DNA of 29,315 nt from a virus (taxonomy: Duplodnaviria; Caudoviricetes), in the IMG/VR virus record IMGVR_UViG_3300044858_001928, positions 1 to 29,315 of that record; one strand, given 5' to 3'. Under the pieces are notes generated by a model, which was not told the DNA's origin, ran no database searches, and saw nothing but the letters and a program-made list of their open reading frames with translations. Numbering within the stretch: position 1 is the stretch's first letter; every line of letters starts with the position of its first letter. The position numbers were made by a program, and so were the translations under genes. Below are positions 931 to 27,713 of the stretch, piece after piece.

Positions 931-1485
931 ATGTCAGTATATTATCCAGCGTCTAATTGTGGAGGTGGTGCAATTCCACAGTATAGCTGTAACCCTTGCC
1001 CAGAATTTGAAACTGCGAGAATCAGATCGGTGGCGTTCGTAAAGAACACATTCTCATTTACCGATCCTTCCGATCCTACTGAGTGGAATACAGGACTCGG
1101 AACAGGAGACATCATTGTAATATGGGCAACTTCGGGATCTTATGACGGGAGTGTCATTGAAGAGGTTGTTGGATTTGGCGATGCCGAGACAAACAATGGA
1201 GGTGCGACTCACATCCTGACTTACAAGGACCCTAACTCAACTACCAACTGCAACTTCTACAATGCAATCAAGAACAGCAGTGACTACACTGTATGGTTCA
1301 GAACATCGAGCAAGATATGGGAGGCAGGTGCGCCAGCAACGATCACTCCTAAGATTCCAGTGGCTGATGATCTGAAGGCAGTTGTTACCTATGAGGTACA
1401 AGTGAAGTGGCAAAATAGTAACTTGCCATGTCCCTACCCAACTCCCGATGGTATCTTCGATCAGTGCTATATCCCTTTAGTGTAG
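931..1485 (+). CDS. putative major tail (tube) protein
   Basis: 184 aa, acidic and beta-rich, A-rich leader (aaaacacaaaacaaATG), follows neck/terminator genes, ends in a -1 slippery site. Confidence 0.65.
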   Translation: MSVYYPASNCGGGAIPQYSCNPCPEFETARIRSVAFVKNTFSFTDPSDPTEWNTGLGTGDIIVIWATSGSYDGSVIEEVVGFGDAETNNGGATHILTYKDPNSTTNCNFYNAIKNSSDYTVWFRTSSKIWEAGAPATITPKIPVADDLKAVVTYEVQVKWQNSNLPCPYPTPDGIFDQCYIPLV

Positions 1486-1571
1486 AGCCTGAAGAGGGTA
1501 ACTTCGAACTGCTGGAAGATGGGCTACCTGCACTCTTAGAGGATGGTGATTATTCACTGCTTGAAACTTAA
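1473..1571 (+). other. -1 frameshift site C_CCT_TTA (1473-1479) and 30-aa C-terminal extension of the MTP
   Basis: In-frame ATC CCT TTA GTG TAG. The -1 frame reads SVEPEEGNFELLEDGLPALLEDGDYSLLET* to TAA 1569-1571 and fills the gap to ATG 1575. Confidence 0.7.
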
Positions 1572-1574
1572 TCA

Positions 1575-2966
1575 ATGGGACAAAAGATATCTCAACTTAC
1601 AGATGGTGTGACCGCACAGGGCAATGACCTTGTGCGTGTCGCACGATTCAGTGGTGGTCAGTACATCGACAGATCGCTAACACTCGGAGACATCGGTGGA
1701 CTCGTCAGCAATGTCACCGTGACAGGTGGCAATACGCTGCGCTTCGCTGACTTTGAAGATGGTACTAACACGGTAGGGACAGGCACACCACGCACGCTAT
1801 CATCACTCGGATATACCGATGGATCAGCAGCGACACAGTTCCCTCTCACTGCTTCTGCATGGGGGAGCATCACTGCTTCCTCCACTGATTACGATACTGC
1901 TGTGATTCAAGAAGCATTCCTGACGCTCGGTCTTGGAAGCAACAAGATCAAGCAACTCAATGCAGGGTATGGTGATTTCATACTCTCAGGGCATGAGATC
2001 ATACTTCCTGCATACAAGGGGACTGGGTCATCAGGATATCCCAATCAGTTCGTCTTCGATGGACAGGGATGCACTTTCTTCTGTCGTGGATCGCAAACTT
2101 ATGGATTCACATCAGAGATAGCAGATCAGACTGAAGCAGATGACAAGGCGATATTCAACACATGGGCATGGTCGAACTGTAAGATCGTACAAGGTCCCGG
2201 TGGAGGTGTATCGATAGGGATGAGGCTCGGTGCGTGTCGATCGCTCGACATGAGAAACGTAGAGTTCGAAGGTTTAGATGCCAATGGATTCGAAGGTGGC
2301 TTCCTGCTCAATTCTCTATTCACAAATGTCAACACTAACTTCTGCGCTGAGTATGGCGTGAAGATCGACAAGGGATGGTGGAGTGGTGCAGGATACTCTA
2401 CTGCTGGCAATCAACCTATGTTCGTCAACTGCCGTTTCAGAACCACAGACCCCAGCTCTATCGGTGCAGGGATCATCGGTTGCGACAGCGTAGAGTTCTA
2501 TCGCTGTACAGTCGAAGGCACTGATGGTGCGTATGGCATCTACATAGACAACTCTTCAACAACGGTTGCGAAGAATGTTCTGATCAGCGGTGTCCACGCA
2601 GAGATCGGTGGTGGCAACAAGTACACCAATGCCATCATCGGTATGAAGGGTAGTGATCCATTCACCTGTGAAGTGCGTCGTGTCTTCTGGCAATCATCGG
2701 CTGCTAACGTAGTGTTGTTGGAGTCAGAGTCTGTGAATGCAACTAATCACATAGTGATCAGAGACTGCCTGACCAATCAGTCGTGGAAGCTCAAGCAGAT
2801 TGATACTACCGGAGGCACATCATCATGGGACTTGAAGAACATCACGTTGCAAGGTGGACCATCCACTGCTGCTGATGTGATCAACACTGTTACCTATCCG
2901 AACATCTGGGCAACAGCAACTGTGCCTGTAATATCACGAGTAAGATTCGAGAAACCATTGAATTGA
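1575..2966 (+). CDS. tail fibre/spike or virion appendage with parallel beta-helix (pectate-lyase-like) domain
   Basis: N-terminal MGQKISQL motif; DTAVIQEAF cap helix followed by beta-helix-like repeats (NCKI, NVEFEG, NCRFR, RCTVEG, GVHAE). Confidence 0.7.
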   Translation: MGQKISQLTDGVTAQGNDLVRVARFSGGQYIDRSLTLGDIGGLVSNVTVTGGNTLRFADFEDGTNTVGTGTPRTLSSLGYTDGSAATQFPLTASAWGSITASSTDYDTAVIQEAFLTLGLGSNKIKQLNAGYGDFILSGHEIILPAYKGTGSSGYPNQFVFDGQGCTFFCRGSQTYGFTSEIADQTEADDKAIFNTWAWSNCKIVQGPGGGVSIGMRLGACRSLDMRNVEFEGLDANGFEGGFLLNSLFTNVNTNFCAEYGVKIDKGWWSGAGYSTAGNQPMFVNCRFRTTDPSSIGAGIIGCDSVEFYRCTVEGTDGAYGIYIDNSSTTVAKNVLISGVHAEIGGGNKYTNAIIGMKGSDPFTCEVRRVFWQSSAANVVLLESESVNATNHIVIRDCLTNQSWKLKQIDTTGGTSSWDLKNITLQGGPSTAADVINTVTYPNIWATATVPVISRVRFEKPLN

Positions 2967-3170: not shown

Positions 3171-3642
3171 CAGCGAACTCATACAAGCGTATGGCGATCC
3201 ACGCATCAACACATCTGCGTGGGAGAGGCAGAACATGAGGTACTATCGTGTACCCGGATTCATCAAAGAGAAGAATCAGTTCCTGCCGAATATCATCTAT
3301 ATGCACAGAGAGTTCATTGATGTTGTTGATGTGTGGCTCACTGCTCTCACCTTCGGTGATCTGATCAAAGAAATCAAGACATACGATGGATGCTGGAATG
3401 TCCGAAATAAGAGAGGGCAGAGTACACTTAGCGTCCATGCTTTCGGTATGGCGATTGACTTCAACGCTACTCATAATCCATTTAAAACAACCAGAGAGCA
3501 AGCCATCGAGAGAGGACTAAAGCCATTCAGCAAGGAGTTCATCAAGGTCAGCCGATCTTACATGGACTGCGGTGCTGACTGGCGCACGACTCCTGATGGT
3601 ATGCACTTTCAAATTAAACGTATCGATGCAATACAATCTTGA
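3154..3642 (+). CDS. endolysin, M15-family Zn peptidase
   Basis: Conserved WNVR...[12 protein letters not shown] and DGMHFQ motifs (SxHxxGxAxD...H). Confidence 0.85.
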
Positions 3643-4984
3643 ACAAGCACGGCTGTGGTTTAGAGACGCACTGCCCACTACTCGTCCCAATGGATTCCAA
3701 GTGAATCGTGATCTGATGATCTTGGATGATAACACATCATACGTGTGGCAAGACCCACAAGGATGGATGAAAGTAGTGTTGCCATTCGGTGCGACTGGTC
3801 CGCAAGGTCCTGTTGGTCCGCAAGGTCCATTAGGCAACACCGGATTGACAGGTCCACAGGGTATGCAGGGTGAGACTGGACCGCAGGGTCCTCCGGGACC
3901 ACAGGGTCCTGCTGGCGGTGGAGGTGGAAGCATACCGACAGGGAAGACATACTATGTCACTAACGAGACCGAGCTACGCAATGCAGTCGCTGCTAACGCT
4001 GCGAAGATTTATGTGGTGCAGGATATCGGACTCACGCAGTCATTGAACTTACCTAAGACATCGCCAAACAGATTCAAGGGCATGGTGATTGATTTGTGTG
4101 GCAACACCATCTTCGATAACTCTACCAATGGTCTGACCTATCTCATAGGACGCAAACCAGCTGATCAGAATGAAGCATTGAATGTCATGCAAAGTTGGGC
4201 ATTGATAATGATGAATGGTGCATTGCAGGGTAAGAGCGCAACGCAGACAGGCACATTGCTTGATCTTGGTGCGACCTACAACTCACGCATTGAAGGAGTC
4301 AATGTCATCAATGCGAAGGTCGGCATCCACATCAAGTTCGGACTTATGACCACGATCCGCAACTCACTGAGCAACTCAATCAGCGAACAAAGCTACGTGC
4401 TTGACAACGGAGACTGGGCAGGTGCAGGACTCAGCAACGCTCAGAGTAATCATTCTCTCATCGAGCAGGTGCGTGTCTTCAATCGTGGTGGTAACTTCAG
4501 TGCGATCTCAGTCATCGGTGCATCGGGTGTCATCATCCGTCAGAGCATCAGCGAGGGAGGCGATCCGCAGCATCATGTGTTCTGGGACTCTAAGGGAGCG
4601 ACAGTGGTGAAGGATGGCAAGATCGAAGGATTCCACATCGAGAGCAAGTCAATGATTGCAGGGATCAAAGTGAAACTTGCATCAGGATATATGACGATTG
4701 CTGATGTGTACAGTCAGTACGACAACGTGCTGATAGACGCTGAGTCTGTGCTTGGATATCCGCACCTATACGTGAAGAATATTCCGTGGTTCACCGGAGG
4801 AAGTAAGTTGAAGACATTAGGCACATCTGTCATCTGGAACTTTGAGGAACTATACTTCGATCCGACAGATGCGACTAAGTGGGTGGGCAATGTCAAGCCC
4901 TTCTACTGGAGCTGGAAGGATATGCGCCAGAGTCCTTTCTGGAAAGGAAATTCTATACAGATCAACTCACAGACATTCCAATGA
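3626..4984 (+). CDS. collagen-repeat fibre protein with beta-helix domain, paralogue of 1575..2966
   Basis: Probable start ATG 3626 (MQYNLEQ). Gly-X-Y repeats at about 3788-3912, a poly-Gly linker, then a beta-helix region alignable by eye to 1575..2966. Confidence 0.7.
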
Positions 4985-5235: not shown

Positions 5236-5299
5236 TTTTGATTGCAGCAACATTACTACTCCTACCAACCATACCACTATGTGCGTGGATAGCTTATGA
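5162..5299 (+). CDS. small membrane peptide (45 aa), below the ORF-track cutoff
   Basis: [30 protein letters not shown]...; its TGA overlaps the FkbM ATG (ATGA 5296-5299). Confidence 0.35.
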   Translation: MRRNYIVEILLLILLLTIIILMKYDFDCSNITTPTNHTTMCVDSL

Positions 5300-5865
5300 A
5301 GTATTCGCAGAACAACGAACAAACGATAATCAATAATTATTTTCAAGGACACATCGGTCGTTTCCTTGACATCGGTGCATACGATGGCATCGCACTAAGC
5401 AACACATATGCGCTGGTGTTAGATGGTTGGAGTGGTGTGATGATCGAAGGCAGTCCGATGACTTTTGAATTGCTGAAGAAAAACATCACGCAGGAGTCAG
5501 TCACGCTGATCCATGCACTTGTTGATGTTGAGCAGAGCAGGGAAGTGAAATTCTTCGACAACACTCAAGCAACTGCTACCATGAACATAGGCAACTACGA
5601 GAAGTGGTTGAAGGCAACACCGTTTCACGAATGTACGATGATGACAACTCCCATCTCCGAGATACTTGACGAGCATGGTTATGCTTATGACTTGGTGAGC
5701 ATAGATGTCGAAGGTGGTAGTGCTGATCTATTCAAGTGGATGTCTGCCCGGATGCCTGATGTCAGAGTCTGGGTTGTAGAACACGATGGTCAGGACCTGC
5801 AATTGGAGGGGTATAAGGTGCTGGACCGGAACGGTGAGAACCTTATTTTCGGGAAGATAGTCTAA
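5296..5865 (+). CDS. FkbM-family SAM-dependent methyltransferase
   Basis: YSQNNEQ, FLDIGAYDG..SNT, GWSGVMIE and SIDVEG motifs. Confidence 0.85.
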   Translation: MKYSQNNEQTIINNYFQGHIGRFLDIGAYDGIALSNTYALVLDGWSGVMIEGSPMTFELLKKNITQESVTLIHALVDVEQSREVKFFDNTQATATMNIGNYEKWLKATPFHECTMMTTPISEILDEHGYAYDLVSIDVEGGSADLFKWMSARMPDVRVWVVEHDGQDLQLEGYKVLDRNGENLIFGKIV

Positions 5866-9778: not shown

Positions 9779-10218
9779 CCCTGCAAGAACTCACACAAGC
9801 AGTGTGGCAGGAGAAACTATCACGCTATCCTTACTCAGCAGCTCGGAGCGAAGCATTCCTTCCGCTTCCATTCACTGCGAGAGATGCGAACTCACTCACA
9901 AGGTCCATCGAGGCGTTCATCCGCATCACCGGACATTACTGCGATCGCATCAACAACGTGGGCATCTATGACAAGCGCACAGGCAAGTACAGGAGTGGAG
10001 GCACACGCAAGGGCATCGCTGATATCATGGCAACTAAGAAGGTCGAGTACGATGATCGCATCTACGGCATCGCAGTAGCCATCGAAGTGAAGTGGGGCAA
10101 GGATAGGATGTCAGCGGATCAACTCAAGATCAAGGCAGAGATCGAACGTACCGGAGGTGTGTACATCATTGCTCGTACATGGGAGCAATTCATAGAAGAA
10201 TGGAACAATATAAAGTAA
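9775..10218 (+). CDS. VRR-NUC-like PD-(D/E)XK nuclease (possible Holliday junction resolvase)
   Basis: KGIADI...AIEVKWGKDRMSADQ...GGVYIIAR pattern. Confidence 0.8.
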   Translation: MTLQELTQAVWQEKLSRYPYSAARSEAFLPLPFTARDANSLTRSIEAFIRITGHYCDRINNVGIYDKRTGKYRSGGTRKGIADIMATKKVEYDDRIYGIAVAIEVKWGKDRMSADQLKIKAEIERTGGVYIIARTWEQFIEEWNNIK

Positions 10219-10220
10219 CT

Positions 10221-10847
10221 ATGCAAGTCAAAGACATTACTCCCCTACTCCTGCATCCGCACCCGGTCATCATCGAACTTGGAATGTGCGATGGCTACCA
10301 CAGCAATCTGATGCTGGAGCAACTGCACTCTCTCAACAAGCCATACACTTATCACGGTGTTGAACCAGTCAAGCACCTTTATGATCGAATACATCTTAAG
10401 TATGCAGGTGAGAAACACAACATCGCCATTGCATCAGAGAACGGTGAACTTGACCTACACGTGAGTGGAGGATCACACCCACAACATGGAAGCTACTACG
10501 GTAGCAGCAGCATCCGCAGTCCTAAGTTAGTCACCCAAGCATGGGAGCGCATGACCTTCACAACGCAGCGATGCACTGCGATGACCTTCGATACCTTCAT
10601 TGAGTCAATCGGTCTAAAAGATAAACGCATTGACTTCATTTGGGCAGATATTCAAGGAGCAGAGATCGATCTCATCAATGGAGGACAGCAAGCATTGAAA
10701 CATACTCGATATCTTTACACTGAGTACAACAACTCTGAACTCTATGAAGGATGTCTTGATCTCAATAGCATCCTTGCACTGCTCCCTGATTGGGAGCTTG
10801 TGCATGACTACAACGGAGACGCACTACTCATCAATACACTACTATGA
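10221..10847 (+). CDS. FkbM-family SAM-dependent methyltransferase (second copy)
   Basis: IIELGMCDG, GVEP, GSSSI, IDFIWADIQGAE, YLYTEY and LYEG motifs; start ATG 10221. Confidence 0.88.
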   Translation: MQVKDITPLLLHPHPVIIELGMCDGYHSNLMLEQLHSLNKPYTYHGVEPVKHLYDRIHLKYAGEKHNIAIASENGELDLHVSGGSHPQHGSYYGSSSIRSPKLVTQAWERMTFTTQRCTAMTFDTFIESIGLKDKRIDFIWADIQGAEIDLINGGQQALKHTRYLYTEYNNSELYEGCLDLNSILALLPDWELVHDYNGDALLINTLL

Positions 10848-15995: not shown

Positions 15996-16172
15996 ATGAA
16001 AGCCATAATCTACCAAGATGCCCGGAAACAGTGGAGGTGGAGGATCCTGTCCCGCAACGGCAGGATCATCGCTGACTCAGGCGAGTCCTACACCAGACGC
16101 ACAAGGTGCATGGATGGACTCAAGCTACTTCAGTCGATCTGCAATCAAGAGATTCAAGTCATCATCGCATGA
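15996..16172 (+). CDS. DUF1508/YegP-like protein (58 aa), missed by the ORF track
   Basis: MKAIIYQDARKQWRWRILSRNGRIIADSGESYTRRTRCMDGL..., matching the WRWRxxxxNGxIIAxSGExY pattern; ATGA-coupled to the next gene. Confidence 0.8.
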   Translation: MKAIIYQDARKQWRWRILSRNGRIIADSGESYTRRTRCMDGLKLLQSICNQEIQVIIA

Positions 16173-16816
16173 ACATCAGTTTGGTACACCCCAGCTTCAA
16201 GCGTCCACGACAGGCGCATGACTGCTACAAGCACTGGGTGATGAAGAGCGACAACGCCTGCGAGTATGAGTGGATCATCTCACTCAGCGACAACGATCCG
16301 ACTGCATCGCAGTACATCCACATCTTCAGGCATGAGCCGGTCACCATCATCAGCACTGGAGCGACCAACATGGTCATGGCATCCAATGCAGGGGCGAAGA
16401 TCGCAGGTCAAGATATCTTGATCCTCGTCAGCGATGATATGTTTGCGCCTCAGGGATGGGACTCGATCCTGCTCGATTGGTTCGCTCGCCATCCAGAGCC
16501 TGCGGTATTGCAGGTGCATGATGGCATCAGATCGGACATCCTGACGATCCCAATTATGAACAGAGGCGCATACGAGCGACTCGGCTATCTCTACCATCCT
16601 AAGTATATCAGTATGTTTGCAGACAACGATCTCACCGAGACAGCGAGGAAACACGGAATGTACCACGTGGATGAGAGCATCGAGATCGAACACAGACACT
16701 ACACGGTTGGCAAGTCTCAACTCGATGAGACCTACAAGCGTGAGAACTCAGCAACTGCATGGACACACGGACAGCGACTATTCAATCAACGACAGAAGAT
16801 CGGCTTTCCACTGTGA
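16169..16816 (+). CDS. glycosyltransferase, GT-A fold (GT2-like)
   Basis: ISLVHPSFKRP, ILILVSDDM (DxD-like), GYLYHPKY, FADNDL and IEHRH; start ATG 16169. Confidence 0.8.
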   Translation: MNISLVHPSFKRPRQAHDCYKHWVMKSDNACEYEWIISLSDNDPTASQYIHIFRHEPVTIISTGATNMVMASNAGAKIAGQDILILVSDDMFAPQGWDSILLDWFARHPEPAVLQVHDGIRSDILTIPIMNRGAYERLGYLYHPKYISMFADNDLTETARKHGMYHVDESIEIEHRHYTVGKSQLDETYKRENSATAWTHGQRLFNQRQKIGFPL

Positions 16817-17382
16817 AGCCGTTGTGGACGATCTACATCCTGACCATCACTGGGAGGGAGTCGATGCTCGCACGACTTCGCACACGCCTTGATCCGCAGG
16901 TGGACTGTAAGCCAGTGGAGGTAATCGTCATCAAGGACAATCGAGAGCATAGCATCGGAGAGAAGCGACAGTACGCTGTCACAACGTGCAGGACCAAGTA
17001 CATGAACTTCATCGATGACGATGATATGATCAGCACGAACTATGTTGATCTGATCTTGTCGCAGCTCAAGCGAGATGTGTATGGTGTGGGATTCAAGGGA
17101 ATCATCACGACCAACTCAAAGCATCCTCTGGAGTTCGTGCATCGTGCCGGGCTGAAGTGGAGCGACAAGCCAGAACGATACGATGGTGCAGTGCGCTACC
17201 TTCGTCCTCTAAACCATCTCAATCCGGTGATGACGAGCATAGCGAGGGAGATCGGATACAAGTCTATCAGCATGGGTGAAGACTATGACTATGCGCTGAG
17301 ACTCGCAGATAGTGGGCTGGTGAAGGACAAGATATTCATAGATCAGTTCCTATACTACTATCAATACAGATCGAACAAATGA
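16813..17382 (+). CDS. glycosyltransferase, GT2-like
   Basis: WTIYILTITGR, SIGEKR, YMNFIDDDD and GEDYDYALRL; GTGA overlap start. Confidence 0.82.
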   Translation: MKPLWTIYILTITGRESMLARLRTRLDPQVDCKPVEVIVIKDNREHSIGEKRQYAVTTCRTKYMNFIDDDDMISTNYVDLILSQLKRDVYGVGFKGIITTNSKHPLEFVHRAGLKWSDKPERYDGAVRYLRPLNHLNPVMTSIAREIGYKSISMGEDYDYALRLADSGLVKDKIFIDQFLYYYQYRSNK

Positions 17383-17837: not shown

Positions 17838-18031
17838 AGCTCAAGGACAAGATCGAGAGACTGCTCGACTCATATGACGAGTACACGATGAGGCGAGACC
17901 TCGCTGAGTTGTCAGCGCACGATCGTCTGAAGATGATGGCTACGCTTGCGGAGTTCATCACCCCGAAGATGAACAGGCAGGAAGTGAAGACTGATGATGG
18001 TGCTATCAACATAAGAATCATCCGTGAGTGA
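17834..18031 (+). CDS. putative terminase small subunit (short)
   Basis: Directly upstream of and overlapping terL; LAEFITPKM...INIRII C-terminal strand. Confidence 0.55.
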   Translation: MKLKDKIERLLDSYDEYTMRRDLAELSAHDRLKMMATLAEFITPKMNRQEVKTDDGAINIRIIRE

Positions 18032-19247
18032 CATCGAGATCAAACTCAAGCGTCTGCACTCAGGGCAGGAGCGTGTCATCAGTGAGGCGAGTAGGTACAA
18101 TGTGCTGAAGATCGGGCGCAGGTGGGGCAAGACCACGCTTGCGGTGAATGAGTTGCTGCCACAGGTTGCGCTTGATGGCAAGCCGTGTGCGTACTATGCT
18201 CCCACGTATAAGGACCTGCATGATGTGTGGCTGGAGTTGAAGTACACATTGAAGCCGATCATTGAGAGTAAGAACGAACAGACCAAGCAGATGCGTCTGG
18301 TCACAGGTGGGGTGATTGACTTCTGGAGTATGGATGAGCCTGACTCTGGTCGTGGGCGCAAATATGCGAGGGTGGTGATTGACGAGGCAGAGAAAGCCAA
18401 GAAGTTCAGGGAGGCGTGGACGCAGACGATCATGGCTACGCTGCTCGACTACAAAGGCGATGCGTGGATCCTTAGTACACCGAAGTTCGGGAGGACATTC
18501 TTCAAGGAGTTGTTTACCAGAGATGATCCGAGTTGGTCAAGTTTCAACCTGTCAACTTATGACAATCCGCACATCAATCACGAAGAGGTCGATCACCTGC
18601 GTGATCAACTCGATGAGTTGACATTCCGGTGCGAGATACTTGCAGAGGATGTTGACCTCGCAAACAATCCTTTCGCTTACGCTTTCGATGTGGACAAGCA
18701 CGTGCATGATGTGGTATTCGATCCGCATCAGCATATCTATCTTAGCTTTGACTTCAACGTTGATCCGATTACTTGCATTGCAGTTCAGCACGTGAGTGGG
18801 TGCATCAATGTGATTGGTGAGTTCGCACTTCGCAACAGCGACATCTATCAGTTGTGTGATTCTATCATTGCCAAGTATCCGAAGGCATCGCTCATCGTGA
18901 CTGGTGATGCTACGGGTGCGAACAGGTCTGCGCTCACTGCCGGGAACACGGGGTATTATGATGTCGTTCAGTCACGGCTTCGTTTGGGCAGGATGCAGAT
19001 GCGTCAACCTGCTGTGAATCCGAGCGTGAGGGATACGAGGGTGCTGGTGAATAGTCTGCTTCAGAATTACTGCGTCAAGATTGACAGATCGTGCAAGGGG
19101 CTGATCACTGACCTGAAGTACGTGGAGGTGGACGAGGAAGGTGACATCATCAAGGACAGGAGTACGGACGTTCGCAAGAGCGATCTGATGGACTGCTTCA
19201 GATACTATTGCGCTACGTTTCATCGTGATTGGATTCGTTATTTATGA
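18024..19247 (+). CDS. terL: terminase large subunit
   Basis: LHSGQ, Walker A GRRWGKT, YYAPT, Walker B VVIDEA, STP coupling motif, nuclease DFNVDP and DLMDCFRY. Confidence 0.93.
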   Translation: MSDIEIKLKRLHSGQERVISEASRYNVLKIGRRWGKTTLAVNELLPQVALDGKPCAYYAPTYKDLHDVWLELKYTLKPIIESKNEQTKQMRLVTGGVIDFWSMDEPDSGRGRKYARVVIDEAEKAKKFREAWTQTIMATLLDYKGDAWILSTPKFGRTFFKELFTRDDPSWSSFNLSTYDNPHINHEEVDHLRDQLDELTFRCEILAEDVDLANNPFAYAFDVDKHVHDVVFDPHQHIYLSFDFNVDPITCIAVQHVSGCINVIGEFALRNSDIYQLCDSIIAKYPKASLIVTGDATGANRSALTAGNTGYYDVVQSRLRLGRMQMRQPAVNPSVRDTRVLVNSLLQNYCVKIDRSCKGLITDLKYVEVDEEGDIIKDRSTDVRKSDLMDCFRYYCATFHRDWIRYL

Positions 19248-19257
19248 TGTATATTTG
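19229..19257 (+). promoter_or_regulatory. Bacteroidota sigma70-type promoter for the tail operon
   Basis: TATATTTG at 19250-19257, TTGG at 19229-19232, 17 nt before ATG 19275. Confidence 0.6.
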
Positions 19258-19274
19258 TATAAAGATCGACACTA

Positions 19275-20012
19275 ATGGCATCAGTATATTTCAGAGCGAG
19301 ATTCAGATTTTCAGTTGCAGAGGCAACGAGTGTTAGTTGGTTATATACAACTGCTGATTCAAATGGTGATAATTATATCCAGACTGCTTTTGCTTTATCT
19401 CAGGACATGACTGACTCCGTTCAGAGGGCATCAGTATTAAGTGGTATAGAAAGCGGAGTATTGACTTATGGTGGATCAATTGTCACTTCAACAGATTCAT
19501 GGAATTTAGTTGGTGGTGACTATGTATGGATTGTGGACATCGAGAGTACCACACCGACATCGCCATCATCTGTTGGTACGAGAATTATTTGGGCGGCGAA
19601 TCTATGCACAGGCATTGGTGACTATATGTTTCCTGTCACATGGACTGAGTGCGACACACCAACACCACCGATCGACACTACACCGTGCGACATCTGCTAC
19701 GATGTGACTACAGACCCATGCGAGAGTACAATCTTCCTGCCCGGTCTCGATGCAGACACGACATATACACTCACGATGACAGACAACGATGCAGGGGTCA
19801 GCTACAACTACGAGGTGACAACTGACGAGACAGGTGAGGCATCAGTCATCATCGCTGACTTTCCAGTCGGTGCGTTCAGCACCTTCAGCAACTACACGGT
19901 GACCATCGTTGACGAGAACGGTGATCCTGCACAGGTGACGATTGGATACACGACATACGACTGCTACAATCTTATATTCACACCATCAACAACAGTAACA
20001 CCACAGGGATGA
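19275..20012 (+). CDS. acidic Thr-rich two-domain protein, probable virion component
   Basis: Pro/Thr linker (DTPTPPIDTTP), Cys cluster, beta-rich C-terminal domain (VTTDETGEASV). Confidence 0.6.
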   Translation: MASVYFRARFRFSVAEATSVSWLYTTADSNGDNYIQTAFALSQDMTDSVQRASVLSGIESGVLTYGGSIVTSTDSWNLVGGDYVWIVDIESTTPTSPSSVGTRIIWAANLCTGIGDYMFPVTWTECDTPTPPIDTTPCDICYDVTTDPCESTIFLPGLDADTTYTLTMTDNDAGVSYNYEVTTDETGEASVIIADFPVGAFSTFSNYTVTIVDENGDPAQVTIGYTTYDCYNLIFTPSTTVTPQG

Positions 20013-20305
20013 TAAGCAATATGATTGACACGCTGATGTTCATGCTCATCAACAGTATGTTCATCAATGGATTCAAGTTAGCAATGGAAGAGGGCATGAT
20101 ACTCTCATGGCTTGGCAAGTGGGGAGAGAAGTGGCTCGGCTATCTGTGGCAACCGTTAGGGGGGTGCGTGACTTGCATGGCGAGTGTTTACTCGATCCCA
20201 TACTGGCTCACCTTCGACTGGAATCTGCCGATGCTGATCATGTACATCCCGGCACTCGCTGCGCTGAACACGATCATCTATAACAGGTATTTCGCACATG
20301 ATTGA
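20009..20305 (+). CDS. small membrane protein with CxxC (DUF1360-like)
   Basis: Hydrophobic helices around PLGGCVTCMASVYS. Confidence 0.55.
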   Translation: MISNMIDTLMFMLINSMFINGFKLAMEEGMILSWLGKWGEKWLGYLWQPLGGCVTCMASVYSIPYWLTFDWNLPMLIMYIPALAALNTIIYNRYFAHD

Positions 20306-20567
20306 GATCATCAACTCATATCTGATCAAGATGCAATACTTCCCTCTGGGGCGATGTGCTTGTAAGGGCAAGCCATACAGATGGAAGCACAGCGATGGTC
20401 ATGAGGTGATGCTGTTCAACGATGGGAGATGGCAACTGAGGCACAACGGAAGAACGACACGATATGGACAACAAGAAACAATATTACAAGAGATTCAAGA
20501 ATACTATTCGCAACGTCTGGGCGAAGATCATCACTCGTCTCGGTCACAAGCCGATCTGGCAGATTGA
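20298..20567 (+). CDS. hypothetical protein
   Basis: 89 aa with a CAC motif; overlaps both neighbours. Confidence 0.55.
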   Translation: MIEIINSYLIKMQYFPLGRCACKGKPYRWKHSDGHEVMLFNDGRWQLRHNGRTTRYGQQETILQEIQEYYSQRLGEDHHSSRSQADLAD

Positions 20568-21129
20568 AGAGGGTCATGTGATAGAACCTGCCTTCATCAG
20601 TGGAGGGGTTCAATACTACCGACTGAAGGACTACTTCAACACCTTCAGTATGCGAGGGCTGATGGCGTTGCAGGTATATGAAGAGTGGAACATGAGGATG
20701 CAGAAGGAGCATCTGGTACTGTTCATCGAGGCGTTCGACAAGATCATCAATGACCCGAAGCAGATCAAGATCGGTGAGTTGGTCAAGATGGTGAATGCCT
20801 TGAAGGAGCGAGTGGAGTGGGTGGTCCCGACATCGGAGATCATCTATAAGTTCGCAAGTGTAGCGTTCTTCGACAAAAATGAGAGTCCGTACAGTTACGA
20901 TCCTGAGTATTGCAAGCAGAAGATTGAACGCTGGAAGGAGGCAGCTGATGTCAGCGATTTTTTTATCGTAACGCAGCTGAAGGATATGCTGCCATTGCCA
21001 ACGCTATCAGAGGAAGATTTGCGGACTTGTTTAACGGTAATAGATCAGTTGAACATCATGGAGAGGGAGAGTCTCCAGCGTATCGCCTTGCGAAGCAAAA
21101 TGAAAATGGATTCATCCAGCGCACTCTGA
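20464..21129 (+). CDS. tail assembly chaperone (gpG-like)
   Basis: Helical protein with DFF encoded by GAT TTT TTT and an open -1 frame downstream; lies upstream of the tape measure gene. Start uncertain. Confidence 0.65.
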   Translation: MDNKKQYYKRFKNTIRNVWAKIITRLGHKPIWQIEEGHVIEPAFISGGVQYYRLKDYFNTFSMRGLMALQVYEEWNMRMQKEHLVLFIEAFDKIINDPKQIKIGELVKMVNALKERVEWVVPTSEIIYKFASVAFFDKNESPYSYDPEYCKQKIERWKEAADVSDFFIVTQLKDMLPLPTLSEEDLRTCLTVIDQLNIMERESLQRIALRSKMKMDSSSAL

Positions 21130-21215
21130 TAAATCAGAGGTATGGCGTGAATTGCATGAAGCTCACATTGTGGGAATATTTATTACTAATTGAACATACG
21201 AATAAATCAGAATAA
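20958..21215 (+). CDS. -1 frameshift extension of the tail chaperone (gpGT-like)
   Basis: T_TTT_TTT at 20958-20964. The -1 frame opens after TGA 20946-20948 and runs 83 codons past the site (YRNAAEGYAAIANAIRGRFADLFNG...LTLWEYLLLIEHTNKSE*). Confidence 0.7.
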   Translation, partial: FFYRNAAEGYAAIANAIRGRFADLFNGNRSVEHHGEGESPAYRLAKQNENGFIQRTLINQRYGVNCMKLTLWEYLLLIEHTNKSE

Positions 21216-21523
21216 TGGGAAAAGAAATTAACATACTTGCACCGGAGTTAGGCTTCGGGTCATTTGGCATCGCAAAGGTTCAGATTGAAATAACAGAAAA
21301 TGAAGAGACAATAAGCAGTCGATTGTATTACTTCAACATTGCTGAGTTTAGTTCCTTCTGTGATACTGTCAATACAGAGTTCGGGTCTATTCATTTCGGT
21401 CAGCATTACATCGGATTGAGCAATGGAGACTATGATGTCTTACGATACAATGGATCGGAAGTGAACAGTCCTTATGTTATAGTATCTGACTTATCTGAAG
21501 CGATCGCACAGCTCGCACCGTAA
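21215..21523 (+). CDS. hypothetical structural protein
   Basis: 102 aa, acidic, TAATG-coupled to the frameshift extension. Confidence 0.65.
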   Translation: MGKEINILAPELGFGSFGIAKVQIEITENEETISSRLYYFNIAEFSSFCDTVNTEFGSIHFGQHYIGLSNGDYDVLRYNGSEVNSPYVIVSDLSEAIAQLAP

Positions 21524-21525
21524 TC

Positions 21526-22308
21526 ATGCCAACATACTCTGTTGTTGATTTCAGCGACACTACGGTCAAGCTAACCGAAGACAGTCTGGAGTATATCTAC
21601 AAGAAGGTGTACTGCCTGACTGCGGTGTATGGTGACTATGTGTATTTCTACACGCATCAGTTAGAGACTAATCTTCTGCGTCAACAATATGCTATTCTCT
21701 ACACTGACTGCGTTGCACCTGTCGGGACTTCAGCAGCTGACTTAAAGACGAAGATCGATGCGATCATCAACAACTACGCAGCGACTGCGCCATCGGTGTA
21801 CTACGGCAGTTACTACGACAGCACGAATCAGACTAACGCAGGAGCGACAGCAGAGAACATCGTCCAGATCGGGAGTGTGTTTGAAGAGAATGGTGTGAGC
21901 ATTCAGAATGGTGACGAGATCACCGTGAACAATGCAGGCACTTATAATCTTCAGTTCAGCGCACAGTTTGAGAAGACGACTGGTCCTGATGCAGATGTGC
22001 AGTTGTGGTTGAAGTTGAATGGTAGCAATGTCGCTGACAGCAATACTGAATTTGCAATCCGTCACAATAATGGCACATATGTACCTGCATGGAATTTCGT
22101 GCTAACTCTCAACGCAGGAGACTATCTTCAGCTTGCGTGGCATAGTACAGATACGAGTGTGAGTTTACTTGCACAAGGCACAGCAGTATCCCCGACACGA
22201 CCAGCGATACCGAGCATGATCGTCACAATCACTGAAGTGATGGGCGTGAGTGGTGGTGGTGGTGGCTTCGATCCTGCATTAACTTTATCTTACATATCAT
22301 CATACTGA
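21526..22308 (+). CDS. fibre-associated protein with C1q/TNF-like C-terminal domain
   Basis: YYGSYYDSTNQT...AGTYNLQFSAQF...WLKLNG...LNAGDYLQLAW jelly-roll pattern. Confidence 0.6.
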   Translation: MPTYSVVDFSDTTVKLTEDSLEYIYKKVYCLTAVYGDYVYFYTHQLETNLLRQQYAILYTDCVAPVGTSAADLKTKIDAIINNYAATAPSVYYGSYYDSTNQTNAGATAENIVQIGSVFEENGVSIQNGDEITVNNAGTYNLQFSAQFEKTTGPDADVQLWLKLNGSNVADSNTEFAIRHNNGTYVPAWNFVLTLNAGDYLQLAWHSTDTSVSLLAQGTAVSPTRPAIPSMIVTITEVMGVSGGGGGFDPALTLSYISSY

Positions 22309-23534
22309 TGTACTTATCAGCAACGACACATATACTTGAGATACTCTCTGATGCGACAGCGACAACGAACGAGCCTGTCTATTCAGTTGCGTACAACGAT
22401 CACACAAGTGCAGGGATGACCTTGCCACAGAGCAGCAGTCAGGGATTGCTCACTGGCACTACACCAGTGACTGCGGTGAGCGCACCGGGAGCGAGTACGA
22501 CTCGGCAGATCGCACACTTGACAGTGTACAATGCAGACACGGTGACGAGGATCATCACGGTGCAGAAGGATGTGAGTGCTACGAATTACATCGTAGTGAA
22601 GGCATCGCTTGCGAGTGGTGCGACCTTGCAGTTCAGTCGTGAGAATGGCTGGACAGTGCTGAACACAGGAGCAGGGCAGGAGAGTCTTGTCCTTACGCAG
22701 TTCATAGCCAATGGCACGTGGAACAAGTCAGCGACACTCAAGGCAGCGTTAGTATGCTGCTTGGGTGCAGGTGGTGGAGGAGGTAGTGGAAGACAGGGAG
22801 CAGCAGGTGAGAATAGATTTGGTGGCGGTGGCGGTGGAGGCGGTGCGCTTGTGTGGAGGATGTTCCAAGCATCGAGCATGAGTCCATCGTATGCCGTCAC
22901 AGTAGGTACTGGTGGCGGTGGTGCAAATGGTCAGGCATCAACATCGAACAATGGCAACACAGGCACGACTGGTGGAGATAGTTCATTTGGCAGTGCTGTT
23001 ATTGCAAAGGGTGGTGTTGGTGGTAGTGGTGGTACAACGACAGCAGGAACGGCAGGAACAGGAGGAACAGCAGCAGCGTCATCACCTGCGTATGGTCCTT
23101 ATGCTACCCCAGCATCGAGTGGGTCAGCAGGTCAGACAACATCAAGCTCTGCTGTAGGTACTCCCGGATTAAGTGGGTCACTCGCAGGAGCTGGCGGTGC
23201 AGGAGGGCAAGGGATCAACTCGGCTAACACATCAGGCGTTGCCACATCAACAGGTGGTGGTGTCTATACGAATGGTGTGTTGATCACTGGACCCACGACA
23301 GGCAACGCAGGTGTTGCGAATCAAGCGTTGAATTTCATGTTCAGCACTTCGCTCAGTGCAGTGTATGGTCTCGGCACAGGCGGTGCAGGAGGTGTTCCAA
23401 GCAACATCGCAGGTACAGCAGGTGGGTCTTATGGTGCAGGTGGTGGTGGCGGTAGTGGTACGCTCAACGGCACAACAAGCGGGGCAGGTGGTGCAGGTGC
23501 AGGGGGATTGGTAACAGTGTTAGAGATATACTAA
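22308..23534 (+). CDS. glycine-rich tail fibre/adhesin protein
   Basis: FIANGTWNK...GAGGGGGSG...VTVGTGG...GAGGLVTVLEIY, a phage glycine-rich domain. Confidence 0.75.
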   Translation: MYLSATTHILEILSDATATTNEPVYSVAYNDHTSAGMTLPQSSSQGLLTGTTPVTAVSAPGASTTRQIAHLTVYNADTVTRIITVQKDVSATNYIVVKASLASGATLQFSRENGWTVLNTGAGQESLVLTQFIANGTWNKSATLKAALVCCLGAGGGGGSGRQGAAGENRFGGGGGGGGALVWRMFQASSMSPSYAVTVGTGGGGANGQASTSNNGNTGTTGGDSSFGSAVIAKGGVGGSGGTTTAGTAGTGGTAAASSPAYGPYATPASSGSAGQTTSSSAVGTPGLSGSLAGAGGAGGQGINSANTSGVATSTGGGVYTNGVLITGPTTGNAGVANQALNFMFSTSLSAVYGLGTGGAGGVPSNIAGTAGGSYGAGGGGGSGTLNGTTSGAGGAGAGGLVTVLEIY

Positions 23535-23535
23535 G

Positions 23536-25665
23536 ATGGCGATCACGGAAACAGTAAACATCGTATTCGGTGTAGTCAGTGACGAACTCGATGAGAGCAT
23601 CGATAAATTAGTTCGTGCAGGGAAAGTTTCTAAGGAGACTGCTGCTGCTTATAAAGAGTTAGAGAACTCCAGCAAGAAGGCTACAGTTGAACTCGAGAAA
23701 TTAAATAAAGAGTTTGGCGAGAATAGTCAAGAAGCGTTAGAGGCGCAGAAAAGAATTGATGAGCTTAATAATAAACTAAAAAAATTAGATGAAGAAGTAA
23801 AGACAACGGCAAAAGATTTTGTTCCACTTCGTCAACGACTCAAAGAGGCAAAGGAAGAACTTCAGAAAGCAGAGGCTGCATTTGGACCATTTAGCGCAGA
23901 GGCGCAAGCAGCGAGGAAGAACGCAGGTGCATTGGCTGACGAGCTTGCTGACTTGAATCGTCAGGTGGGATTGTTGAACCCGGAGGATAAGATCAAAGCA
24001 TTCAGCAATCTTGGTCAGGGTATTCTCGGATCGTTCCAAGTAGCAACCGGAGCATTGCAAGCATTCGGTGCTGAGAATGAAAGAGTGCAGGAGATTGCAC
24101 AGAGATTACAAGGTGCATTGAATGTCGTGCAGGGAATTCAATCAATAATAGGATTGAAGGAAGCGTATGAGGATGTTAAGATTATTCTTGGTATCACAAC
24201 AACAGCGCAGAAAGCGTTGACTGTTGCTAATGAAGCAGAGGCTGTATCTGCTCAAACAGCAGCAGCAGCGAACAGAGGATTAGCTGCTTCGTTAGGTCCT
24301 ATCGTTTTGATTCTTGGCGCACTCGCAGCAGCATACTATATCTTGGCTGATTCAGAAGAAGCAGCGAAGGGAAGTACCGATGATCTGTTAAAATCATTTG
24401 AAGAATTAAGGAAAGAGCAGGAATTACAATTATCAATTCTGAAATTGCAAGGTGCTAATGAAGCTGAATTAATTAAGAAGAGACTTGAGTTCAATAAGAT
24501 TAATCAGGATACTCTGAATTCAATTAAAGATCAAGTTAAAGAAGAAGAAAAGAAAAAGGATATAACTACATCTATTAATGATCTTAAGAGAAATGAGAAA
24601 CTACTGAATGAAGAATTAAAGAAAAGCATATCTGATTTAGCACAAGAAGAATTATTAAGAGAGCAAGCAGAACGTGAACGACAAGATTCAGCAACAAAGG
24701 GTTTGCAATCACAATTTGAAAGTGAACTTCAGAATCAATTAAAAGCAGTTGATGATTTTGCAAATCTTAGAAAGACTGCTGATCTAACAATTATAGAAAA
24801 CACTAAGGACAGGGAGAATGCAAATCTTGTTACTGAGTTAGAGTCTCTGGAAAAAAAGCGTCAGATACTTGTTCAATTTGGAAAAGATACTGAGTTAATT
24901 GATGCACAGATTGCAGCTAAGAGAAAAGAGATAAAAGATAAAGAAAAGGAAGAATTTAAAGCAGACTATGAAGAGCGACAAAAGTTTATCAAAGATTTAG
25001 CAGCAGCATCATTTGACTTCATTCAAGATTTAAGCAAAGCATCAATACAAGCACAGATAAATGATCTTGAACAACAGAAAGAGCAGGGCATCATCACAGA
25101 GGAAGAGTATCAGGCAAAACTCAGGAAGATCAAGAATGATGCAGCCAAGCAGGAGAAAGAGTTCTCAGTCTTCGCAGCTACGTTAGCATTCACAGAGGCG
25201 TTAGTCAAAGCACTCACAACACCGAATCCTCCAGCAGCGTTAGCATTAGCAGCAGCAGTAGGAGGGTTGAACCTTGCGAAGATCATTGCTACTCCAGTAC
25301 CAAGATTCAAGCAGGGTACTCTCAACGTAGGCGGTGGCAACCTCGATGCTGATGGTGGCAGTCTTGCAATGTTGCATCCGGGTGAAGCCGTGATTCCTGC
25401 CGATCGCAACAGGTCATACCATCCTACACTCAAGGCGATCTACGAGAAGCAGATCAGTCCATCAGATATCAATGCTTATGTGTTGAATCGTCTTGCAGGG
25501 CGTGGTAGTATCGGACGAGATACGGTGACTGCGAAGGTTGACACATACGCATTGAGCAAGGCAATGAGTCGTAACAAGGGAGTGCAGATTGAGAATGCAC
25601 AGATCGTAGGTAAGGCGATTGCGAGTGAACTGGCAGGACGCATTAACAGGAGGCAGATGCTATGA
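23536..25665 (+). CDS. tape measure protein
   Basis: 709 aa, Ala/Glu/Lys-rich coiled coils with hydrophobic stretches; C-terminal RFKQG...AMLHPGEAVIP motif. Confidence 0.85.
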   Translation: MAITETVNIVFGVVSDELDESIDKLVRAGKVSKETAAAYKELENSSKKATVELEKLNKEFGENSQEALEAQKRIDELNNKLKKLDEEVKTTAKDFVPLRQRLKEAKEELQKAEAAFGPFSAEAQAARKNAGALADELADLNRQVGLLNPEDKIKAFSNLGQGILGSFQVATGALQAFGAENERVQEIAQRLQGALNVVQGIQSIIGLKEAYEDVKIILGITTTAQKALTVANEAEAVSAQTAAAANRGLAASLGPIVLILGALAAAYYILADSEEAAKGSTDDLLKSFEELRKEQELQLSILKLQGANEAELIKKRLEFNKINQDTLNSIKDQVKEEEKKKDITTSINDLKRNEKLLNEELKKSISDLAQEELLREQAERERQDSATKGLQSQFESELQNQLKAVDDFANLRKTADLTIIENTKDRENANLVTELESLEKKRQILVQFGKDTELIDAQIAAKRKEIKDKEKEEFKADYEERQKFIKDLAAASFDFIQDLSKASIQAQINDLEQQKEQGIITEEEYQAKLRKIKNDAAKQEKEFSVFAATLAFTEALVKALTTPNPPAALALAAAVGGLNLAKIIATPVPRFKQGTLNVGGGNLDADGGSLAMLHPGEAVIPADRNRSYHPTLKAIYEKQISPSDINAYVLNRLAGRGSIGRDTVTAKVDTYALSKAMSRNKGVQIENAQIVGKAIASELAGRINRRQML

Positions 25666-27713
25666 TGAAGTTCATGTTCGATGGTAACTATGTCGATCCT
25701 GCTCTTAACTGGCAGGAGATCACATCTACATTGAGGCGTGATAAGGATCAGAATCTGTTCTTGTTGTTTCAAGAATATACTCTGGAGTTCGATGGTAGTG
25801 GATTCGCTTATATCAAAGCGATCGTTGATGGTGATACTTTCTGCGAGGAGATCGTTGTTTCAATCTTGAAAGAATGCGATGGTCAGGAGCAATTGATATT
25901 CAAAGGTACATTATTCATAGTAGATGTTGAGATCAACGAGCGCACTTGTATTGCGAATTGCAAGGTCAACGACATGAGTTTTTTTAGTCGTATAAACAAC
26001 AACAAGAATATAGATACTGCTCTCGATGCGGACTTCACGAAGAACCTTGCACAGATCACTGCTCCGGTAGTATATGAACTTGACGTACATCGTGTGTTGA
26101 ACAATGTACTCAAGTACACAGTTGATTGTTGCAGGGTGTTTGAAGCGTTCAAGTATTTCATCTCGTTTATGAGTGACAACAAGGTAGGTTTCGCTTCAAG
26201 TCTTTTCGGCATCAACGGACAATGGGAAGGGCTGTGCATCACCACAGGGGAGCGATTACGTGGCGTGACTCCAAGTATTACGGTAGGAAGATGGGAGCCA
26301 TTCAGTTTCAATGATCTGTTCAATGAGATCAACAAGCGGATTCCAATTGTATTGCTCATTGATGATCCTTATGGATCACCAGTGGTGAGAATCGAGAGCA
26401 TTGACTATCTGAACAATGCGAACATCGTATATTCAGCGAATGACATCGAGGAGATCGTGAGCAGTTACGATCAGGATAAACTCTATGCGGTGGTGCGTTT
26501 TGGCAGTCCTGTTGATGATACGTTCACGGACTTTCCTGAGACGATCAACTTCTATGGATTTAAGCAAGAAGAGTTCCACATCTTAGGCACGTGCAACCTT
26601 GATCAGACTCTTGATCTCACGTGCGACTGGATCACATCGAGTAACATCATCCAGCGTCTTGTTGACTTCGGTGATCAGGGCTATGACAACAATATATTCC
26701 TCATTGATTCGATATTGACAAATGCGACATCAGGCAGGACAACGAACACGAACTTTATCGGCTCTAATCCTGCACGATTCTTCTACAATGAGGAGTTGAA
26801 CAATCAGAATATTGCAGATAGATACATTGAGGACTTGAGCGATAGTCTTGCAGCGTTCTTCGTAGAGACGCAGGATGGGCGTGCGCTCGCTTACAGAGCC
26901 ACTAATCTTGCGTGTACTGGAACACCGAACTATCTGACTCCTGTCACTACTACTCAGTTTAACACGACTGAAAGCTTTGACTTCGGAAACTACTACGATC
27001 CTGTATTGTGCAGGTACACAGCATTGGAGACTGGCGTGTATAATTTCAAAGCACAGATCAGGATACAGTGTCAGGCAGGTACATTGAATGGTAAAGGATA
27101 CTATCAGTTCTGGTGCGTGCATCGTGATTCTGTTGGCAATGTCATACAGATATATCAGATGTACGATCCGATCTTGAATCCTACGAATCCATACATCACA
27201 CCGAATCCAACATTCCCGACCATCAACAATCAGGTGATGTACATCGGACCGAATACAATTCTGGGTGTGACAATTAACGGCATCATCGCACCTACATCGA
27301 TAGCAATGACGCAGGGAGATTACATTGATATGCAAGTGAACTATGATCCTGCGACTACTGTATATCCTGCTGCTCCACCCTATCCTCTCGGTAGTGTGTT
27401 AGGATCGAACAGGGGAACGATCATCGGAGGCATTGACAATACTTACTTTGAATGTACGACTGCGAACAATTATGGTGGTATATTTGTAAATGTGGATCAA
27501 CGAAACATAAGAGTGCAGCTTCACAAGTTCACTTATCCAATGACGCAGACAGACTTCGATGCTATCCTTGCGAATCCTGTTGGTCGATTTACCTTCGGCA
27601 TGAATGGTCAGGACCCTCGATTCGGATGGATTCAAGAATTAAAGTACAATCACACAACTGGTCTTGCAGACATCACATTGCAGACATCTAAAGCATCTCA
27701 GTATGGCAGTTAG
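25662..27713 (+). CDS. minor tail / tail-tip protein with inserted C1q-like domain
   Basis: Follows the TMP; LNWQEI..RD...LEFDG N-terminus, FDFGNYYD...YTALETGVYNFKAQI insert, GWIQELKYN C-terminus. Confidence 0.7.
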   Translation: MMKFMFDGNYVDPALNWQEITSTLRRDKDQNLFLLFQEYTLEFDGSGFAYIKAIVDGDTFCEEIVVSILKECDGQEQLIFKGTLFIVDVEINERTCIANCKVNDMSFFSRINNNKNIDTALDADFTKNLAQITAPVVYELDVHRVLNNVLKYTVDCCRVFEAFKYFISFMSDNKVGFASSLFGINGQWEGLCITTGERLRGVTPSITVGRWEPFSFNDLFNEINKRIPIVLLIDDPYGSPVVRIESIDYLNNANIVYSANDIEEIVSSYDQDKLYAVVRFGSPVDDTFTDFPETINFYGFKQEEFHILGTCNLDQTLDLTCDWITSSNIIQRLVDFGDQGYDNNIFLIDSILTNATSGRTTNTNFIGSNPARFFYNEELNNQNIADRYIEDLSDSLAAFFVETQDGRALAYRATNLACTGTPNYLTPVTTTQFNTTESFDFGNYYDPVLCRYTALETGVYNFKAQIRIQCQAGTLNGKGYYQFWCVHRDSVGNVIQIYQMYDPILNPTNPYITPNPTFPTINNQVMYIGPNTILGVTINGIIAPTSIAMTQGDYIDMQVNYDPATTVYPAAPPYPLGSVLGSNRGTIIGGIDNTYFECTTANNYGGIFVNVDQRNIRVQLHKFTYPMTQTDFDAILANPVGRFTFGMNGQDPRFGWIQELKYNHTTGLADITLQTSKASQYGS

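Follow-up and report, generated by a model that had tools for sequence, protein, structure and literature searches.

A likely programmed -1 frameshift at the end of a phage tail tube gene adds an acidic LLE-repeat peptide ahead of a KISxL-domain fibre gene

Within the window, by which we mean the whole 29,315-nucleotide stretch of viral DNA that was analysed (IMG/VR record IMGVR_UViG_3300044858_001928), the gene for the tail tube protein very likely ends in a programmed -1 frameshift. The slippery heptamer, the extension read in the -1 frame and the adjacent fibre gene form a three-part cassette, which is present or absent as a unit in the tube family. From sequence comparison, we read the heptamer and extension as a real recoding event that had been hidden until now. 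We give a somewhat better than even chance to a fuller reading, in which the frameshift would add to the tube an acidic tag that binds the KISxL domain of the neighbouring fibre and thereby hangs fibres on the tail shaft. The coordinates of the features are collected in Table 1.

Table 1. Features of the tube-fibre region (window positions unless a locus is named)
Feature	Position	Strand	Basis or remark
Gene for the tail tube (major tail) protein, 184 aa in frame 0	931..1485	+	Fold, homologues
Slippery heptamer C CCT TTA (C CCT TT[A/G] in the family), likely site of the -1 frameshift	1473..1479	+	Alignment, co-occurrence
0-frame stop TAG, one codon past heptamer	1483..1485	+	In 6/18 loci, stop directly after heptamer
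-1-frame extension, 30 aa, net charge -10; tube isoform would be 213 aa	1479..1571	+	
Three LLE(D/T) units, 8-residue spacing, candidate docking tag	1509..1568	+	22-tag alignment
Incidental 47-aa ORF from ATG 1428, not regarded as a gene	1428..1571	+	ATG in 1/18 loci
Putative fibre/spike gene, 463 aa	1575..2966	+	34 homologues
N-terminal KISxL domain, ~45 aa, candidate socket	1575..1709	+	Model, relatives
Insert-bearing extensions	L105:387-788, L106:3214-3621, L034:1226-1633		

The tail tube gene and its predicted frameshift

An earlier note on this DNA had called the first gene of the cassette a major tail protein, which is borne out by its predicted fold, with no Pfam or PHROG match found for the protein. 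An AlphaFold2 model built from 63 sequences (pLDDT 84.5) has the beta-sandwich tube fold with one helix (gpV/Hcp fold), and 48 of the 50 rows of its VIA-align list carry phage tail/neck/baseplate, tailocin/CIS, GTA or T6SS titles, at Z 5.7-7.8. The model aligned over 130 residues both with the YSD1 major tail protein (Z 7.7, rmsd 4.7) and with the SPP1 tube (6yeg; Z 7.4, rmsd 4.5); the top row is a hypothetical protein (Z 8.1). Single Z values are middling, and it is the agreement across the list that carries the tube call. ESM Atlas leads for the protein were PF25595 and PF06199, at 0.88, and a tail-protein gene lies two genes upstream. Assignment of the protein to the tail tube type is thus supported by the modelled fold. 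All 66 homologues are 159-189 aa in length, so there is no in-frame long form among them, and a search for cultured or prophage relatives returned no tube homologue in 50,697 GenBank phage records or in the GTDB scan. Cysteines at both ends of the protein (window 931-1020 and 1426-1470), namely C10, C20, C23 and C179, are nearly invariant and possibly form disulfide or metal cross-links.

The tube gene ends ATC CCT TTA GTG TAG, which places CCCTTTA in X_XXY_YYZ phase, as the earlier note had described. Across 27 window ORFs with 7,636 codon positions, 7 in-phase heptamers of the form XXX-(A/T)3-N occur, and just the one at 1473-1479 stands at a gene end. The site is spanned by contigs from three DNA runs of separate studies, and no indel is listed there, which indicates that the slip site is not an assembly error. 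Downstream of the heptamer, the -1 frame reads SVEPEEGNFELLEDGLPALLEDGDYSLLET up to a TAA stop (1569-1571). LLE falls at residues 11, 19 and 27 of the extension, and the next ATG (1575) lies three bases past the stop. The earlier description of this frame, with LLE every 8 residues and a product of 213 rather than 184 aa, is therefore confirmed.

Comparison of homologous tube genes, which had been proposed as a check, covered 158 tube-family loci in addition to the window; after removal of 8 truncated loci and 20 that were identical around the stop, 131 distinct 3' ends remained. The heptamer and the LLE extension were both present in 18 of these ends and both absent from 113, and neither occurred alone (0/131). 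This pattern strongly supports the frameshift reading of the earlier note, and because the 18 extension-positive loci are related, a Fisher p value for 18 versus 113 overstates the case. Tubes with the extension span 60-100% identity, and in each of the 18 genes CCCTTT[A/G] stands in phase, one or two codons ahead of the stop. CCCTTT was invariant in a DNA alignment of 10 loci, and the slip-site codons were RTC-CCT-TTR in 18/18 extension-positive loci; over the full length of these 18 genes, ATC accounts for 87 of 184 Ile codons, CCT for 80 of 210 Pro codons and TTR for 30 of 86 Leu codons. Of 34 extension-negative loci whose ends are similar ([IV]P[LIV]), none has the same codon combination, and these include two IPL ends written with other codons. 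Upstream of the heptamer, the -1 frame is closed within 4-8 codons in 17 of the 18 extension-positive loci. The heptamer is thus conserved at synonymous positions, and the -1 ORF is conserved only downstream of it and without a start of its own, which is the pattern of a programmed -1 frameshift. A search with the combined slip-plus-tag pattern returned 7 contigs, all of which were already in the locus set.

Two other routes to the same peptide were weighed. Production of a separate mini-protein from ATG 1428, GTG 1464 or re-initiation, with no frameshift involved, has some appeal because the window contains both the ATG and the GTG in frame and because other phages have stand-alone tag genes of 46-74 aa with their own ATG ahead of KISxL genes. 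However, the ATG occurs in 1 of the 18 extension-positive loci and is absent from L001, which is 98% identical to the window, and the GTG is present in 6; a conserved start codon is lacking in the -1 frame, and 7 of the 18 loci lack any ATG, GTG or TTG ahead of the first LLE. An independent start, which the earlier note had named as the competing source of the peptide, therefore fails to account for it, and this route, which would also leave the fixed synonymous codons of the heptamer unexplained, is very improbable. RNA-polymerase slippage or a +2 shift would arrive at the same reading frame as -1 ribosomal slippage, and the one RNA run aligned with the window gives no coverage of the site, with runs X23 and X24 containing small shares of the window only; we consider this route barely credible, since the runs comprise just three C and three T, and the X_XXY_YYZ phase is kept in 18/18 loci. 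Tandem tRNA slippage from CCU-UUA to CCC-UUU is, with high probability, the event that the heptamer would permit.

A 3' stimulatory RNA structure is common in programmed -1 frameshifting and is not obligatory. The stem that had been proposed downstream of the heptamer (AGCCT pairing with GGGCT) did not hold up: RNA of the window folds no better there than shuffled sequence (z -0.27), the stem leaves no spacer after the heptamer and its sequence is not conserved. Relative to dinucleotide shuffles, z fell below -1 in 10 of the 18 loci, whereas relative to synonymous recoding it did so in 5/18 only (mean -0.2), and no stimulatory structure was found in the clade of the window. The adjacent stop codon may aid slippage. 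By eye, a terminator-like GC hairpin directly follows the tube stop in most extension-negative loci (L003-L019 and many others), and the window has no such hairpin there.

Forms of the extension across the tube family

The extension is a bare peptide of 25-34 aa in 15 of the 18 loci. Across 22 aligned tags, L11, E13, G15 and E21 are invariant, and a rule requiring LLE with a period of 8 residues matched one real gene end in the window, with no second tag there. In the remaining three loci (L105, L106 and L034), an insert of about 105 aa lies between the slip site and the tag, which is still the last element. The L105 tube is 98% identical to that of the window, and the L105 and L106 inserts are 44% identical to each other; one of the three inserts matched PF24025 at E 0.024, a weak Ig-like hint. 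In run X1, a minority contig switches to the insert form at 1490, which places short and long alleles in one lake run.

We placed the extension trait on a quick tree of 76 tubes (at least 52% identity), from which the last 8 residues were removed and the partial L105 and L122 were left out. The trait required 5 changes on this tree, and a single clade was rejected (p-AU 2e-5); a tree of full-length proteins gave 4 changes. Independent contrasts numbered 2 on well-supported branches and 5 on all branches, and because only 2 fall on strong branches, the statistical weight of the association is far below what 18 versus 113 implies.

Two distant tube relatives, L069:3520-4151 (39% identity) and L066:3530-4193 (37%), have G GGG GGG and G GGG GAA, respectively, at their ends. 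The -1 frames run on for 205 and 217 aa, and no ATG occurs early in them. The two products are similar to each other (E 5e-8), have no Pfam match and differ from the LLE extension. By sequence, these loci probably represent a second, independent origin of a frameshift extension in the tube family.

Co-occurrence of the tag with KISxL-domain genes

A gene with a KISxL domain came next in all 17 extension-positive loci that had enough downstream DNA, and no such gene lay within 500 nt in any of 104 extension-negative loci. In 9 of 72 extension-negative loci, a KISxL gene was found farther downstream, and the gene just before it ended in an LLE/LTE-type repeat in 9/9. Homologues lacking the slip site, which the earlier note had regarded as telling against a frameshift, make up 113 of the 131 ends, yet the peptide and the adjoining fibre gene are missing there too, which supports the frameshift reading. 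Relatives at 89% identity pass from the tube stop through a hairpin to a small gene that in the window comes after the fibre. None of 8 extension-negative viral records (71-98% complete) contained a KISxL domain anywhere; five positive records contained one each, a result that is partly circular because the profile includes their sequences or close relatives. A locus search from the fibre side returned 4 contigs, all already in the set. We also considered read-through from the tag into the fibre gene, for which the two are in frame in the window, but this candidate was rejected because 6 of 17 loci have a gap of 13, 20 or 23 nt, which puts the two out of frame. Fusion of tag and domain in one chain was seen neither in the fetched loci nor in 154 proteins.

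The earlier note had pointed to genes ending in LLEDG ahead of KISQL genes in other phages, and the co-occurrence check that it proposed bears out this pairing both in the tube family, as above, and elsewhere. Unrelated phages were found by one start motif, which gave 121 loci from 11 of the 64 parts of IMG/VR. With a one-unit tag rule, the tag preceded 44 of 110 KISxL genes versus 7 of 105 control genes. With a strict 8-periodic rule, which was written after the one-unit results had been viewed, and after dereplication, the tag preceded 22 of 66 KISxL genes versus 0 of 83 controls, which leaves 44 of the 66 without the strict motif upstream. In these phages, the tag stands at the end of ordinary genes, 46 to ~480 aa long, and the heptamer was present in 0 of the 20 listed cases. 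The carriers of the tag thus comprise the tube extension, stand-alone genes of ~150 aa, mini-genes of 46-74 aa and genes of ~480 aa. Within the tube family, a clade without the slip site (L038, L041, L042, L044, L046, L121, L127 and L130) has at least one similar ~150-aa gene after the tube gene, and the last of these genes carries an LTE-type tag at its end and stands ahead of a MANKKISQL-type gene; it is an alternative tag carrier.

The KISxL domain was modelled as a short helix, a beta-hairpin and a helix (pLDDT 87.5). Its profile matched 421 proteins, and among the matches listed the domain starts within the first 10 residues in 120/120 relatives; their C-terminal domains vary, some being lectin-like, Gly-rich or chaperone domains. 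No consistent Pfam match was found among 53 members. Atlas leads to known fibre-anchor domains (Mtd_N, T4 gp9/gp10 N, PF24243) reached 0.85-0.90 only. The best VIA match, an internal part of the short tail fibre of phage 7-7-1 (Z 3.4, rmsd 3.9, 45 aligned), was set aside as too weak to use, and a single KISxL match in the search for cultured or prophage relatives (E 9) ran antisense to an annotated gene and was attributed to chance. For the remainder of the fibre protein, the beta-helix label of the earlier note stands on weak ground: PF13229 matched residues 200-337 at E 4.4e-4, below the curated cut-off, and was found in 7 of 34 homologues. The fibre had no match in the PDB by sequence, and PDB sequence searches with profiles of the tube, tag, domain and fibre returned nothing meaningful.

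The best-matching runs for the 29-kb viral record are lake-water metagenomes, and a BT4734-like primase domain in the window hints at a Bacteroidota host. Gene order is odd, in that tail genes follow the terminase (window 18024-29315) and the tube/fibre/lysis block stands apart. In this partial record, no match was found to a portal or capsid gene, nor to a sheath among 28 window proteins. An ORF from ~27703 continues past the window end, and a 221-aa ORF (20464-21129), which sits upstream of a tape-measure-like gene, is followed by a short frame from near 21143 (window 21130-21212) with no assigned gene, where a tail-chaperone arrangement of the G/GT type is conceivable. A collagen-repeat protein after the endolysin (window 3572-4984) is a second fibre-like gene and lacks a KISxL start. 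Two FkbM-type methyltransferases and two family-2 glycosyltransferases (window 5296-5865, 10179-10847 and 16106-17382) possibly modify glycans of the virion or host surface.

A candidate docking mechanism and its alternatives

Docking of the tag on the KISxL domain, to which the co-occurrence points, is fairly probable. In the mechanism that we propose, the tRNAs of some ribosomes would shift from CCU-UUA to pair with CCC-UUU, these ribosomes would continue in the -1 frame, and the resulting 213-aa subunit would join the tube with its acidic tail outside. The three LLE units would bind the N-terminal KISxL domains of the fibre, possibly with one unit per chain of a trimer, such that fibres would hang outside the tail shaft, and the slip rate would cap their number. 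In its broadest form, the proposal is that the LLE-repeat peptide and the KISxL domain are an undescribed, portable plug-and-socket of aquatic phages, in which the frameshift wires the plug onto the tube, the slip rate sets the number of fibre trimers on the shaft, and slip site, plug and fibre behave as one cassette when they are gained, lost or re-spaced; we put this at an even chance. Several points count against this explanation: the tag is acidic yet the domain has a net charge of 0, the extension-positive loci are related and give few independent contrasts, most KISxL genes elsewhere lack the strict tag, the tag of other phages sits on ordinary genes with no heptamer in the 20 listed cases, and no stimulatory structure was found in the clade of the window.

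The frameshift could be real and serve another end. The acidic tail might act by itself, as a surface decoration or an arm between rings, with the fibre anchored at the tail tip, the neck or the head instead, and the pairing due to a co-inherited block. Adjacent sequences recombine together and the tube family offers few independent contrasts; moreover, known frameshift extensions are themselves adhesins (PMC8718954, PMC6669499), and the strict tag is missing ahead of many KISxL genes. However, the tag precedes KISxL genes on carriers as unrelated as the tube extension, stand-alone genes, mini-genes and ~480-aa genes, it precedes none of the 83 control genes, and no second gene end in the window carries it, and we regard a self-acting tail as unlikely. 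Alternatively, the tag might bind the fibre only to help assembly, or only at one ring or a few rings close to the neck or the tail tip, rather than along the shaft. The frameshift product gpGT of phage lambda is described as binding tail proteins and being absent from virions (PMC5009743). In contrast, the extension considered here is fused to a tube fold, and the long isoform of SPP1 is built into the tube at 3:1 (PMC8718954); we consider this alternative quite unlikely.

Among known systems, the closest in recoding is SPP1, whose tube protein is made in a short and a frameshift-extended form (gp17.1 and gp17.1*), both of which enter the tube at 3:1 (PMC8718954). The window resembles SPP1 in its tube fold (6yeg, Z 7.4) and in having a short and a predicted frameshift-extended form. 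The SPP1 extension is described there as a folded FN3/Ig domain, for which direct contact with the cell wall is proposed (PMC8718954), whereas here it is, in 15/18 loci, a bare peptide of 25-34 aa tied to a fibre gene. Frameshifting also adds a CBM to the tail protein TpeX of lactococcal 936-group phages (PMC6669499) and extends tail proteins of Lactobacillus phage A2 and Listeria phages A118, A500 and PSA (PMC5009743). As in those phages, the predicted frameshift here lies at the end of the major tail gene and is optional within the phage group. Their extensions are carbohydrate-binding or Ig-like domains, which are not known to have a separate partner protein (PMC6669499, PMC5009743); the 30-aa peptide of the window has neither an Ig-like nor a CBM fold.

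In docking, the closest parallels lie in other systems. TssG loops of the T6SS anchor TssK trimers through three hydrophobic residues, 6-11 apart, which enter the N-terminal cavity of a trimeric RBP-like protein (PMC6300606). This arrangement is a geometric analogy for the three LLE units; the TssG loops are internal to the baseplate and involve no frameshift, and profiles of the tag and domain had no sequence match to TssG/TssK-type PDB chains. In Klebsiella phages KP32, K11 and KP34, a conserved peptide and a branching domain dock one RBP on the virion, as tested experimentally (PMC13352976). In that group, the secondary RBP that docks has the peptide and the carrier RBP has the domain, whereas here the peptide is on the carrier (the tube) and the domain on the fibre. 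In crAss001, the tail hub gp38/gp39 holds residues 1-26 of gp22 (PMC10172136), which amounts to a fibre N-terminus docked on the side of the tail barrel via dedicated folded hub proteins rather than a frameshift-added tag. The system therefore resembles the SPP1/TpeX group in recoding and the TssG/KP32/crAss001 group in docking, and it is not a member of the group with Ig or CBM extensions. Frameshift-extended tubes are already known; a bare docking tag added by frameshift would be the new element, and in the open-licence literature we found no report of an LLE tag, a KISxL domain or a docking tag added in this way.

If the proposed mechanism is correct, then recoding in these phages would add an attachment point for a separate, exchangeable fibre instead of an adhesin domain, and frameshift efficiency would set the stoichiometry of virion appendages. 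The short stretches without annotation that follow tube genes would be accounted for as well. With its 30-residue peptide and 45-residue domain, the system is compact, and it would provide a function for the widespread, unannotated KISxL domain, which is estimated to occur in ~700 IMG/VR stretches from one start motif alone.
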